DNA from: an uncultured Friedmanniella sp.
GTDB lineage: Bacteria > Actinomycetota > Actinomycetes > Propionibacteriales > Propionibacteriaceae
Assembly (NCBI RefSeq): GCF_964244285.1
Contig: NZ_CAXTHT010000001.1
Span: forward strand, 750,167-774,166
Direction: 5' to 3'
Length of the DNA: 24,000 nt
Shown here: in pieces, positions 20,086 to 22,875 of the stretch
How the letters are laid out: every line of letters begins with the position of its first letter
How positions within the stretch are numbered: position 1 is the stretch's first letter
Notes under the pieces: model-generated
Databases searched by the model: none
What the model saw: only the letters and a program-made list of their open reading frames with translations
Told to the model about the DNA's origin: nothing
Position numbers and translations under genes: made by a program

Positions 20086-22875
20086 CTAGCTGGGCTTCAC
20101 GGGTTCCGCGGCCAGCTCCTGCAGGACGTCCACCACCCGAGCGCACTCGGTGGTGATGCGGACGGCGAGGTCGGGCAGGTCCGAGGCCGCGGTCCGCGCG
20201 GCGATCTGGGTCTGCTGCAGGAGACCGGCCAGCGGCTTGGCCCCGACGAGGCCCGTCGCGGACGCGAGGGCGTGGGCCAAGCTGCCCGCTCCCGCGGTGT
20301 CGCCGGCCTCCACCGCCGCCACGAGATCGGGGATCAGCGTCTCGGCGCTCGCCAGGTAGGTCTGGATCAGCTGCCGGACCGCCGACCCGTCGGTGTCGTC
20401 GAGGTCGGTACGAAGCTGGTCCAAGACGTCGAGGTCGACCGCCAGCAGCGAGGCCGCCGCAGGGATCGGGGTCTCGTCCGGTGCCGGGTTCTGCGCTCGG
20501 ATGGACACTCCCACGTTGTCGAGCATCAGCTTGAGGTCAGCCGCGCGTACCGGTTTGGTCAGGTAGCTCTCCATCCCGGCGGCGGTGCAGGCCCGCTGGT
20601 CCTCCAGCAGGGCGCTCGCCGTCATCGCGATGATGTGCGGCTGGCGCTCCTCCGGCAGGGTGGCCCGGATCTGCCGGGTGGCGGCCAGACCGTCGAGCTG
20701 CGGCATCTGGATGTCCATCAGCACCACGTCGTAGGTCGTCTCGGTGATGGCGTCCACGGCCTGGCGCCCGTTGGTCACGATGTCGACGCGGTGACCGAGC
20801 TTGTTCAACATCAGCTGGGCCACACGCTGGTTCACCAGGTTGTCCTCGGCCAGCAGGATCCTCAGCGGGTGGTCCGCGGGTCCGGCAGGCAGCTGCCGGT
20901 GGGAGGCAGCACCGGGGCCGTCGCCGCCGGAGTCCAGCGCCGCCTTCAGGCCGGCTTTGAGGGCCAGGGCCTTCACCGGCTTGTTGACGATGGTCGCGAA
21001 GGCGGCCGTCATCGGCGGCAGCCGGTCACCGACGCTGGCCAGCAGGATCATCGGCGTGGTGGCGAAGGACGGCATCCTGCGCAGAGCGGCCGCGAGCTGG
21101 ATGCCGTTCATCTGTGGCATGTGCTTGTCGAGCACGGCGACGTCGAAGGTCCGCCCGCTCGCCACCGCGGTGAGCGCCTCGGCCGGTGTGGCCGCGGTCG
21201 TGGTGTCCAGCCCCAGCGCCTTCAGCTGCAGGTCGAGGACCCGGAGGTTCGTCAGGTTGTCATCGACGACCAGCACCGACCTGCCGGCGAGCTCGGTCCC
21301 CGGATCGTCCTCGGGCAGCGGCTCGACGGGAGCGAGATTGGAGTCCAGCTCCACCGTGACCGTGAAGGTCGACCCCTCCCCGGGCGTGGACTCCACCGTG
21401 ATGTCCCCGCCCATGGCCTGGGCGAGCCGACGGCTGATGGCCAGGCCGAGGCCGGTGCCGCCGTAGGAGCGGGTGTAGGAGGTGTCGACCTGGCTGAAGG
21501 AGGTGAAGAGCTTGCTGATGCCGTCGGGGGTGATCCCGATGCCGGTGTCGGTGACCTTGAGGGTCAGGGGGAGCTTGCCGTCCACCGCCAGCCCCGCGGA
21601 CACCCCCAGCAGCACGTCGCCGGCGGGGGTGAACTTGACCGCGTTGGACAGCAGGTTGATCAGGACCTGACGCAGCCGCGGCGCGTCGCCGATCGCGGTG
21701 TCCGGGCAGGTCTCGTCGACGTAGCAGACGAGGTCCAGCTCCTTCGCCTTGGCGGCGGCGGCCACGAAGTCGAGCGCGTTCTCGATCTCCTCGCGCAACC
21801 GGAAGGGACCGGGGGTGAGCCGCAGCTCCCCGGACTCGATCTTGGAGAAGTCGAGGATGTCGTCGATCACGGCGAGCAACGCGTCGCCGCTGGACCGGAC
21901 GGTGTTGAGGAAGTCCTGCTGCTGCTCGTCCAGCCGAGTGTCCAGCAGCAGGTCCGTCATCCCGATCACCGCGTTCATCGGGGTCCGGATCTCGTGGCTC
22001 ATCGTGGCCAGGAAGGTGGACTTGGCTTCCGCTGCGGCCAGCGCGTCGTCCCGGGCGGTCGCGAGCTCCTGGTTCGTGCGCTTCAGCTCGGTGACGTTCA
22101 GGCTGACCCCGCAGACCGCGTACATGGTGCCGTCGGAGCGGTGGATGGGGAACTTGACCGAGTCGTAGAAGAGGTCGCCGGCCCGGCTCGGCACGTGCTC
22201 CTCCAACCGGTAGCGACCCCGCTCCGCCGCCACCCGGTCGGCCGCGCGCCACTGCTCGGCGAGGGTCGGGCTGACCCTCTCGTCGGTCTGGCCGACGATC
22301 TCAGCCTCGGTGACCCCGACGGCCTCTTCCCAGGCCCGGTTGACCAGGACGTAGCGGCCCTCGAGGTCCTTGACGTAGATCAGGGAGTGGCTGTTCTGGT
22401 TGATCGACTTCATCATCGAGAAGTAGAAGTCGCGCTCGGCCTCGGCCTCGGCCCGCGCCAGCACCTCGGTCTCGAGCTTCTCCAGGTCGGCCAGTCGCTG
22501 CTTCTCCAGCAGGTCGTCGAACATCGGGGCCGTGTTCAGCAGCCGACCGTAGAACTTCCGCAGGGTGAGGTAGTAGACCGCGACCCCCGCGGTGAAGGTG
22601 TGCCACAACGCGCTCCACCAGGTGCTCATGCCCACCATGCCGGACATGCCCGGCATGGCAGGAGTGTGGACGACGAACGGGCTGATGGCGTGCAGACCAT
22701 GACCCACCGAGCAGCTGAAGAAGATCATCGCCGTCGCCGTGCCCAGCTTGTTGGACCGCACCTGGTGCAGCCGGTACAACGGGATCGTGATCAGCGCGGC
22801 GATGACGAGGTAGGCGACGCTGATCACGCTGTTGGCGACGACCTCGAGCTGCCACCACATGATCATGCGGGGCAC
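20086..22875 (-). CDS. Hybrid sensor histidine kinase: 3-TM N-terminal domain, coiled coil, PAS, HisKA, HATPase_c, REC, REC, HPt
   Basis: The H-box is [19 protein letters not shown]. The N/G boxes are [17 protein letters not shown] and [16 protein letters not shown]1 is [27 protein letters not shown]2 is [28 protein letters not shown]. The C-terminal HPt-like motif is [14 protein letters not shown]. The start is ambiguous (GTG 22875, ATG 22866 or ATG 22860). Confidence 0.9.
22627..22662 (-). repeat. 9-bp tandem repeat x4 encoding a [12 protein letters not shown] methionine ladder
   Basis: The plus-strand units are catgcccac, catgccgga, catgcccgg and catggcagg. On the minus strand they read [12 protein letters not shown], located between predicted TM2 and TM3 of the kinase. 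Confidence 0.85.

Follow-up and report, generated by a model that had tools for sequence, protein, structure and literature searches.

Evidence for a distant relative of the copper-containing ethylene-binding domain in an actinobacterial hybrid histidine kinase

Introduction

The membrane sensor at the N-terminus of a hybrid histidine kinase from an uncultured Friedmanniella species appears, from comparisons of its sequence with those of its relatives, to be distantly related to the ethylene-binding domain (EBD), with its copper, of plant and cyanobacterial receptors, the homology being weak but supported. Judged by the same alignments, the family around it is an unnamed soil-actinobacterial branch of the ETR1_N superfamily (PF25487), in which the Cys/His pair is kept and several of the ethylene-binding residues are changed. 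The interpretation that we favor, and to which we would give an even chance of being right, is of a divergent actinobacterial branch of the EBDs that acts as a metal-cofactored three-helix sensor of a small membrane-soluble ligand, the signal being relayed to a NarL-type regulator. The gene is located in a stretch of 24,000 nucleotides, analyzed as a whole and here called the window, and all positions count from its first letter.

The kinase gene and its domains

The gene and the parts of its product are the following.

20086-22875, minus strand: hybrid sensor histidine kinase gene (open reading frame with a GTG start, 929 residues, GC3 of 0.95, Pfam domains)
22510-22860, minus strand: EBD-like (ETR1_N-like) three-helix membrane sensor domain, residues 6-122 (PF25487 match over residues 8-101; AF2 pLDDT 84)
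22771-22857, minus strand: transmembrane (TM) helix 1, residues 7-35, carrying N15, Y22, and I25 (AF2)
22672-22749, minus strand: TM helix 2, residues 43-68, carrying F52, C55, H59, and H62 (AF2)
22621-22671, minus strand: extracytoplasmic loop 2, residues 69-85, with a Met-rich run at 22627-22656 (AF2 and sequence)
22537-22620, minus strand: TM helix 3, residues 86-113, carrying H92, T95/A96, and R106 (AF2)
22393-22536, minus strand: juxtamembrane motif APMFDDL and charged linker between TM helix 3 and the PAS domain, residues 114-161 (sequence)
22078-22392, minus strand: PAS domain (PAS_4), residues 162-266 (Pfam, E 8.2e-12)
21343-22026, minus strand: kinase core, HisKA at residues 284-349 (acceptor H294 in SHEIRTP) and HATPase_c at 396-511 (Pfam)
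20521-21294, minus strand: two receiver domains, residues 528-647 with D583 and 673-785 with D721 (Pfam)
20137-20373, minus strand: HPt domain, residues 835-913, with H868 (Pfam)

The Pfam search and the AF2 model together give the order of three TM helices, PAS, HisKA, HATPase, two receivers, and HPt, and the set needed for a hybrid phosphorelay is complete (H294, HATPase_c, D583/D721, and H868 all located), in agreement with the first-pass annotation, in which the sensor was said to feed a kinase and receiver architecture as it does in ethylene receptors; a PAS-HK-receiver relay is likewise fed by the sensor of bacterial ethylene receptors. As the relatives open at 'MxWW', the true start is probably the ATG at 22860 (M6) or at 22866 (M4) rather than the GTG; residue numbers are counted here from the GTG and would be lowered by 5 (M6) or 3 (M4) by such a start. 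A public protein collection contained no exact copy of the protein under any of three alternative starts, and no NCBIfam model matches its N-terminal domain.

The AF2 model (pLDDT 84, pTM 0.77) places the membrane helices at residues 7-35, 43-68, and 86-113, thus recovering the three helices proposed earlier for the first 110 or so residues (22546-22875, residues 1-110). Loop 1 is strongly basic (K+R 2.45 versus D+E 0.28) and loop 2 is acidic, as would fit an outer N-terminus and an inner C-terminus for the three-TM bundle predicted for the first 120 or so residues. In helix 1, N15 (22831-22833) is aligned to Asp25 of ETR1, Y22 (22810-22812) to Tyr32, and I25 to Ile35. The Cys-x3-His pair of helix 2 is found at the codons first assigned to it, C55 as tgc at 22711-22713 and H59 as cat at 22699-22701, both inside the membrane according to the predicted topology, with H62 following at 22690-22692. 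A stretch of ten residues in loop 2 contains four Met. In helix 3, H92 (22600-22602) is aligned to Lys91 and T95/A96 to T94/A95 of ETR1. The linker beyond helix 3 is inferred to be helical from its heptad-like charged sequence, and D121 of the kinase is conserved in more than 90% of the relatives.

Homology to the ethylene-binding domain

ETR1_N is the sole Pfam family matched by the sensor domain, at 23.8-24.0 bits (E 5.6e-5, i.e., about 5e-5) over residues 8-101, below the gathering cut-off of 27 bits. It is also matched by all six of the close relatives and by 53 of 57 diverse relatives, which match essentially nothing else (best E 1.1e-8), and about 12 of these 57 reach the gathering score, with P0010 at 30.5 bits, so that the family straddles the threshold. 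The match to the EBD profile expected at first reading is thus reproducible and consistent across the family, even if below threshold for the kinase itself. In the reverse direction, a family HMM matches four bacterial proteins annotated with PF25487 at 19.5-27 bits, with Asn/Asp, Tyr, Ile, Cys, and His all in register; it scores the bacterial ETR1_N proteins above the plant ones, and it retrieves family members only from among 8,557 ORF translations.

Profile-profile alignment pairs N15 with D25, Y22 with Y32, I25 with I35, C55 with C65, and H59 with H69, the same register as in the initial alignment by hand, including the placement of N15 against D25, and the spacing of 33 residues from Tyr to Cys is indeed common to the kinase and ETR1. 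The ETR1 sequence used for that alignment was correct, as a search with ETR1 draws plant proteins labeled 'ethylene receptor' at up to 91% identity, nearly all of them carrying PF25487. When extended, the alignment also pairs helix 3, D/H..TA.V[GA] with K..TA.VS. The hhalign P-value is 0.0016 in the true orientation versus 0.23 and 0.32 for reversed-profile controls, with an hhalign probability of only 16%.

The AF2 models lend further support. In a canonical bacterial EBD, P0265, helices are placed at residues 32-62, 70-95, and 99-120, and the two helix maps, as first suggested for comparison, agree to within one residue: loop 1 is of 7 residues and helix 2 of 26 residues in both, the Cys/His offsets in helix 2 are 12/16 in the sensor domain versus 13/17 in P0265, and the polar residue of helix 3 is at offset 6 versus 7. 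A sequence search of the PDB found no EBD relative, and a Foldseek search of the sensor domain against the PDB returned nothing below E 3.9. Two other identities were considered for the domain and rejected, MHYT, which has no Pfam match in the kinase or in the 57 relatives, and MASE, of which MASE3 is matched by a single member of the 57 (E 0.007).

The family comprises about 400 clusters at 50% identity. Its sources are high-GC environmental and metagenome-assembled genomes, the named ones all belonging to Actinomycetota, and its loci have a GC content of 67-77%. The sensor domain is found fused to hybrid kinases, to GGDEF-EAL proteins, and to HisKA_3-like modules; one contig scan used the full protein and returned mostly generic hybrid kinases, of which only that of locus L001 carries the sensor domain. 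About four fifths of the family fall below the Pfam cut-off, and the members are unlabeled in pre-computed Pfam annotation, the named ones being listed as 'response regulator', 'signal transduction histidine kinase', 'PAS domain S-box-containing protein', or 'hypothetical protein'. Searches for an actinobacterial EBD found nothing in the available literature, which agrees with the earlier remark that no characterized example was known.

Conservation and the ethylene-binding residues

Conservation of the putative copper ligands among orthologues was proposed as a check in the first-pass annotation, and it is high: in 137 relatives C55 is kept in 92% and H59 in 97%, and both are invariant in the 56 closer ones. 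Other positions are also well conserved across the family (H62 86%, F52 96%, N15 86%, Y22 93%, I25 96%, and R106 100%). Helix 2 of the family follows the motif C-x2-[G/H]-H-x2-H-x2-H, with additional His residues lining the helix, and Met makes up 4.9% of loop 2 across the family versus 1.7% of the C-terminal parts, an enrichment of about threefold. The position of Lys91 is occupied by H92 in the kinase and by Asp in 83% of the family.

Seven residues of ETR1, with Tyr32 reportedly among them (Wang et al. 2006), are required for ethylene binding, and by these alignments four of the seven are kept, the changes being D25 to N, P36 to A, and I62 to F. As to Asp25, it is present in 93.6% of 1,221 EBDs, with Asn in 3.7%; in the kinase the residue is N15, and 86% of the family have Asn. 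A D25N substitution makes the affinity of ETR1 about 100-fold lower, and tests in yeast revealed no binding, while Asn at this position also occurs as a natural variant in a receptor that is still functional. Pro36, which along with Ile62 and Ile35 is essential for ethylene binding by ETR1, is replaced by A26 in the kinase and by Ala, Ser, or Thr in the family. Ile62 is replaced by F52, Phe being found in 96% of the family; one HMM alignment puts a one-residue gap at this position, and there is no Ile under either alignment. The I62F change is reported to be the etr1-4 substitution (Chang et al. 1993), and etr1-4 plants are ethylene-insensitive. Asp25 and Lys91 are coupled in ETR1, and this pair is also absent, being N15-H92 in the kinase and N-D in most of the family. 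Ethylene sensing at a high affinity (ETR1-like, nanomolar) is unlikely for this domain. With three of the seven positions altered and the D25-K91 pairing lost, its chemistry may differ altogether from that of the canonical domains.

Genomic context

Upstream of the kinase gene the window contains two further features.

22876-23063, between the two genes: shared intergenic/promoter region of the kinase and the regulator, with a 14-nt imperfect direct repeat
23064-23768, plus strand: NarL/LuxR-type response regulator, divergent from the kinase (Response_reg and GerE)

This regulator is the probable partner of the kinase; the divergent pairing is kept in the orthologous locus L001, where the kinase is 52% and the regulator 45% identical, and in L081. 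A promoter and terminator scan around the kinase gene detected no sigma-70-like promoter and no terminator. The neighbors of the kinase gene in the window are signaling genes, without copper or alkene genes, and 118 neighboring genes from 55 family loci show no enrichment of copper, alkene, or ethylene-related functions; copper-homeostasis families are absent from the 25 commonest families in this set and from the kinase's own neighbors. Two of the 118 have thioredoxin-like or DsbH-like domains, and two have ferric-reductase-like domains.

Comparison with known systems

The closest parallels are bacterial. SynEtr1 (Synechocystis slr1212) and AzoEtr1 (Azospirillum brasilense), the latter of the order EBD-PAS-HK, both bind 14C-ethylene. 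In both, as in the kinase, an N-terminal three-TM sensor carries Cys-x3-His in its second helix and leads through PAS (AzoEtr1) or PAS/GAF modules to a histidine kinase, with phosphotransfer to a response regulator. They keep all seven of the ETR1 residues, as does every receptor shown to bind ethylene, while the kinase keeps four; the N-terminal extension is of about 6 residues in the kinase versus about 30 in bacterial ethylene receptors, loop 2 is of 17 residues and Met-rich versus about 3 residues in the canonical AF2 model, and the kinase possesses extra His residues in helix 2, two receivers, and an HPt domain. With plant ETR1/ERS1 the kinase shares the topology, the Tyr-Cys spacing, the copper-ligand pair, the TA.V of helix 3, and the output through a hybrid kinase and receiver, but in addition to the three changes listed above it has Lys91 replaced by His (Asp in the family) and Asn72 by His, it lacks the N-terminal disulfide cysteines, it has PAS in place of GAF, and it scores below the Pfam cut-off.

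The likeness to MHYT (PF03707) is one of concept only. MHYT is reported to have been proposed to bind copper and sense gases (Galperin et al. 2001), and it too is an integral-membrane sensor, which has conserved Met and His residues close to the external side and occurs in fusions with kinases and GGDEF/EAL outputs, but it has six TM helices and repeated MHYT motifs and no Cys-x3-His. Kinases of the CusS/CopS type are alike in being two-component sensors in which His and Met coordinate Cu(I)/Ag(I); however, they have a folded periplasmic metal-binding domain between two TM helices, and their genes adjoin cus or cop, both of which are missing here. A copper sensor of this type was rejected on architecture, given the outer loop of only 17 residues, no periplasmic domain, and no copper genes nearby.

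Alternative interpretations

It could be argued that the resemblance is fortuitous, i.e., that a generic three-helix membrane anchor, unrelated to the EBDs, has come upon a Cx3H by convergence or chance: the scores are low (23.8 bits and an hhalign probability of 16%), TM helices share composition, and pre-computed Pfam annotation passes the family by. This we consider very improbable, as 53 of the 57 diverse members match ETR1_N and essentially nothing else, the matches run in both directions, the five landmark residues being in register and the helix-3 motif aligning too, the reversed-profile controls fail, the geometry of helices and loops in the AF2 models is within one residue of that of the canonical domain, and the polar intramembrane residues are strictly conserved, unlike those of a passive anchor. 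No more credible is a thiol or redox sensor, in which C55, within the membrane, would be oxidized or modified, whether or not a metal is present, and would in this way report oxidants, electrophiles, or the membrane's redox state. A highly conserved single Cys in mid-membrane, the PAS domain downstream, and the two thioredoxin-/DsbH-like and two ferric-reductase-like neighbors would all suit such a role, but H59, H62, and the N15/D92 pair are conserved just as strictly, which speaks for a metal site and against a reactive thiol acting by itself, the Cys is a copper ligand in the homologues, and the redox-related neighbors number just two of 118 each.

A true ethylene receptor, in which Cu(I) held by C55 and H59 would bind plant- or soil-derived ethylene at a useful affinity and report to the NarL-type regulator, is somewhat less improbable, though still doubtful. 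Of the original reading, the EBD homology and the copper-ligand pair in register have stood, the equivalents of Tyr32 and Ile35 are kept, Asn in place of Asp25 has a functional natural precedent, the order EBD-PAS-HK is that of the ethylene-binding AzoEtr1, and the environmental origin of the high-GC and metagenome-assembled genomes would be in keeping with it. Working ethylene binding finds no such support: only four of the seven residues are present, Pro36 is Ala and Lys91 is not conserved, the D25-K91 pair being replaced, Phe at the essential Ile62 is the change of the ethylene-insensitive etr1-4, D25N costs about 100-fold in affinity, and all proven binders keep all seven residues. More plausible than any of these, yet still rather unlikely, is that the metal itself is the signal, with Cu(I) (or Ag, Zn, or another ion) passing from outside through the Met-rich loop and the His ladder to the Cys/His site, whose occupancy would switch the kinase. 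The His residues of helix 2, along with Asp/His in helix 3, are more ligands than a single cofactor needs, and Met and His motifs, here the four Met of loop 2 and their family-wide enrichment, are typical of proteins of Cu(I) uptake and handling such as Ctr1, CopC/PcoC, and CusF. Metal-ion sensing would account equally well for the extra His and the Met-rich loop. However, known metal-sensing two-component systems usually adjoin the genes under their control, and no metal-homeostasis genes are found among the commonest neighbor families of the 55 loci or beside the kinase gene; in the canonical homologues, moreover, copper is a cofactor and not a signal.

Proposed mechanism

In the mechanism that we favor, that of a metal-cofactored sensor of a membrane-soluble ligand, the domain probably holds a metal. 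The broader suggestion of the first-pass annotation, a gas, olefin, or copper sensor, may still apply. A polar cluster in the outer half of the membrane, made of C55, H59, and H62 of helix 2, N15 of helix 1, and H92 of helix 3, would most likely hold a thiophilic metal, Cu(I) by homology, which the Met-rich outer loop and the His residues of helix 2 may help to load. A small membrane-soluble ligand arriving at the metal site would shift helix 3, with its invariant R106 and LFxD motif, and the kinase would then receive the signal by way of the helical linker and PAS. The phosphoryl group would pass from H294 to a receiver Asp (D721 or D583), to H868 of the HPt domain, and finally to the NarL-type regulator of the divergent gene.

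Implications

Working ethylene receptors have been demonstrated in plants, in cyanobacteria, and in one proteobacterium. The family described here presents a natural experiment, in which the copper ligands are kept and the changes fall on exactly those residues by which ETR1 sets its ethylene affinity and its signal coupling (D25, P36, I62, and K91). If copper and a ligand are bound, the domain would illustrate how the fold can be retuned, and soil actinobacteria would possess a new class of gas or small-molecule sensors; if the metal is sensed directly, a cofactor site would have been turned into a signal site. A more specific and rather speculative possibility is that the family forms a separate, unannotated clade, in the soil Actinomycetota, of intramembrane sensors that have a copper cofactor and descend from the fold of the ethylene receptors. 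In this clade the acidic residue would have been shifted from helix 1 to helix 3, the His ladder and Met-rich loop would self-load the metal, and ethylene would be detected at another affinity, or another alkene or gas detected instead. Should this be the case, gas sensing of the ETR1 type would reach a major soil and plant-associated phylum, with phosphorelays and c-di-GMP enzymes as its outputs.

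Gene, Domains, and Genomic Setting

The sensor belongs to a hybrid kinase encoded divergently from a response regulator, in a window of 71% GC with codon-position GC as usual for Actinomycetota. A kinase and receiver architecture had been claimed to lie behind the sensor domain, and Pfam bears this out, with all of the phospho-sites found (H294, D583, D721, and H868).

Features of the kinase locus (domains by Pfam, in residues of the kinase)
20086-22875, minus strand: hybrid kinase gene, ORF of 929 aa
Residues 162-266: PAS_4
Residues 284-349: HisKA
Residues 396-511: HATPase_c
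Residues 528-647: receiver domain 1
Residues 673-785: receiver domain 2
Residues 835-913: HPt
23064-23768, plus strand: NarL/LuxR-type response regulator, divergent from the kinase gene

As relatives begin with "MxWW," translation probably starts at M6 or M4; residues are numbered here as in the first-pass annotation. Receiver 1 (20935-21294, minus strand) gives a near-threshold match (25.6 vs. 27 bits) to PF24896, the first-receiver family of the plant cytokinin receptor AHK4/CRE1, and its acceptor D583 is kept.

The divergent pair recurs in the fragment L081 and in L001, a locus from an uncultured Actinomycetota MAG that is the sole clear orthologue found among species-representative genomes (kinase 52% identical over residues 2-893, regulator 45% identical). 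The L001 orthologue (8007-10037, MAG MFD02581.bin.1.145) is split into 87-aa and 582-aa ORFs, with a frame change near 8270, probably an assembly frameshift and not a real pseudogene. The kinase-regulator intergenic region of the window contains an imperfect 14-nt direct repeat, GCGCCGCAGCGGGC (22876-22889) and GCGTCGCAGCGTGC (23008-23021), 132 nt apart; a regulator may bind there, or the match may have arisen by chance in DNA so rich in GC. A 114-aa ORF (19688-20032, minus strand) follows the kinase stop codon at a distance of 53 nt. A GC3 of 0.95 suggests that it is a real gene, but it has neither a Pfam match nor a counterpart in the retrieved loci, the surroundings of the L001 orthologue included. 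The remaining window genes (peptide ABC transporter, RsmI, TatD) look unrelated to the kinase. At 6429-8417, GC3-based gene calling chose a 557-aa ORF (6747-8417, plus strand) of odd pattern (GC1 0.92, GC3 0.77), probably an antisense shadow of the minus-strand ORFs 6429-7358 and 7368-8249.

Homology to the Ethylene-Binding Domain

The N-terminal domain is very probably homologous to the ethylene-binding domain (EBD), as the first-pass annotation had proposed from an alignment by hand with ETR1. The ETR1 sequence used there proved sound, because an ETR1 N-terminus entered separately matched ethylene receptors of plants, with identities reaching 91%; the codons of C55 and H59 are where they had been placed, and the Tyr-to-Cys distance is indeed 33 residues in both proteins. 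ETR1_N (PF25487) is the sole Pfam match of residues 1-130 (E 5.6e-5), at 23.8 bits, below the Pfam cut-off of 27 bits. Among relatives it is matched by all 6 close ones and by 53 of 57 from a diverse set (best E 1.1e-8, no competing family), with about 12 of the 57 reaching the cut-off and one full-length relative scoring 30.5 bits. In the reverse direction, the family HMM recovered four bacterial PF25487-annotated proteins at 19.5-27 bits, one from Exilibacterium tricleocarpae, pairing Asn/Asp, Tyr/Tyr, Ile/Ile, Cys/Cys, and His/His, and among 8,557 ORF translations of unrelated loci it found true family members only. Comparison with a mainly plant EBD alignment (hhalign) gave P 0.0016, vs. 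0.23 and 0.32 for reversed profiles, and the extended alignment pairs D/H92..T95-A96.V98 of helix 3 with K91..T94-A95.V97.

The three transmembrane helices first noticed from the sequence alone are reproduced by AlphaFold2 (56-sequence alignment; 7-35, 43-68, and 86-113; pLDDT 84, pTM 0.77). The model of P0265, a canonical bacterial EBD protein, has helices 32-62, 70-95, and 99-120. In this model and in that of the window domain alike, loop 1 spans 7 residues and helix 2 spans 26; the helix-2 Cys/His offsets are 13/17 in P0265 vs. 12/16, and that of the helix-3 polar residue 7 vs. 6. Across relatives a strongly basic loop 1 and an acidic loop 2 point to an N-out/C-in topology, as in ETR1. An EBD relative was looked for in the PDB and none was found.

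Family Extent and Gene Neighborhoods

Searching 1.84 billion representatives with a profile returned 400 clusters at E ≤ 1e-3, 274 of them at E ≤ 1e-10, the named sources being Propionibacteriaceae, Sporichthyaceae, Mycobacteriales, and "Actinomycetota" MAGs. The GC content is 67-77% in 60 of 61 family loci. Members are labeled "response regulator," "signal transduction histidine kinase," "PAS domain S-box-containing protein," or "hypothetical protein," and pre-computed Pfam leaves their domain unlabeled, whereas canonical EBDs carry PF25487. The domain is modular: it is joined to hybrid kinases, some with PAS and some lacking it, and to PAS-GGDEF-EAL proteins. About 100 short members (170-215 aa; see locus L083 2053-3740 and proteins P0187, P0156, P0170, and P0003) combine it with a HisKA_3-like helix and lack an ATPase domain; among the 55 with a recognizable helix, the acceptor site holds Asn in 36 proteins, His in 17, and Gln in 2. 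The P0187 gene is complete and overlaps, at its stop, the start of a gene for a soluble receiver-HisKA-HATPase protein, an arrangement suggestive of a split sensor-kinase pair.

The 118 genes flanking 55 family loci are mainly response regulators (24), kinases, and PAS, SpoIIE, and GGDEF/EAL proteins. The 25 commonest families among these neighbors include none for copper homeostasis or alkene metabolism, which makes a dedicated regulator of copper resistance less likely.

Ligand and Cofactor

ETR1 needs seven residues to bind ethylene, reportedly identified by Wang et al. in 2006 as D25, Y32, I35, P36, I62, C65, and H69. All but Y32 are confirmed as essential in the literature, and all seven are kept in every receptor shown to bind ethylene. 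The window protein keeps the Tyr, Ile, Cys, and His equivalents, and the other three are changed. D25 is Asn, which occurs naturally in a minority of cases (3.7%) and in ETR1 reduces affinity about 100-fold; P36 is Ala; and I62 is Phe, the substitution of the ethylene-insensitive etr1-4 allele. The D25-K91 polar bridge, which couples binding to output in ETR1, is replaced by Asn and a helix-3 Asp in most of the family and by Asn and His in the window protein, where ETR1 N72 is also His. With these residues changed and the bridge lost, high-affinity ethylene binding looks unlikely.

Residue conservation among 137 family members
N15: 86%
Y22: 93%
I25: 96%
N42: 96%
T48: 97%
F52: 96%
C55: 92%
H59: 97%
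H62: 86%
Position 65: His in 64%
Position 92: Asp 83%, His 5% (His in the window protein)
A96: 93%
Y102: 95%
R106: 100%

The Cys/His pair is thus conserved among relatives, within a motif, C-x2-[G/H]-H-x2-H-x2-H, that places Cys, with three or four His, along a single face of helix 2 between mid-membrane and the outer surface. The TM2-TM3 outer loop (residues 74-83; 22627-22656, minus strand) has Met at every third position, resembling Cu(I)-binding "Mets" motifs, with similar loops in close relatives (DAMTGMAGMAGPG, SRMPGMSMAASSH); across the family Met makes up 4.9% of this loop vs. 1.7% of C-terminal parts, an approximately threefold enrichment. The Cys/His face and the loop both suit a thiophilic metal, and may either help to load a cofactor or sense metal directly. 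Most members have His65 and Asp92 (window codons 22681-22683 and 22600-22602), and in the window's subclade His92 goes with Ser or Gln at 65 in 4 of 6 tabulated patterns, His92 occurring in 7 sequences only; the exchange may be a compensating metal-ligand swap between helices 2 and 3.

The reading we favor, at about even confidence, is of a divergent EBD-like sensor, probably Cu(I)-cofactored, that would sense some small membrane-soluble molecule rather than ethylene at ETR1-like affinity. A direct metal sensor is appreciably less probable. Homology to the EBD stands, but membership among functional ethylene receptors does not follow, since several defining residues are changed and the window protein scores below the Pfam cut-off; given D25N, P36A, I62F, and the lost bridge, a true ethylene receptor is improbable. 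Still less credence goes to a thiol or redox sensor, or to a chance resemblance to the EBD. In the favored, EBD-like sensor, the ligand would act at the probable Cu(I) cofactor, and the signal would pass through PAS, kinase, and phosphorelay to the NarL-type regulator. The EBD-like domain lends itself to direct biochemical testing.
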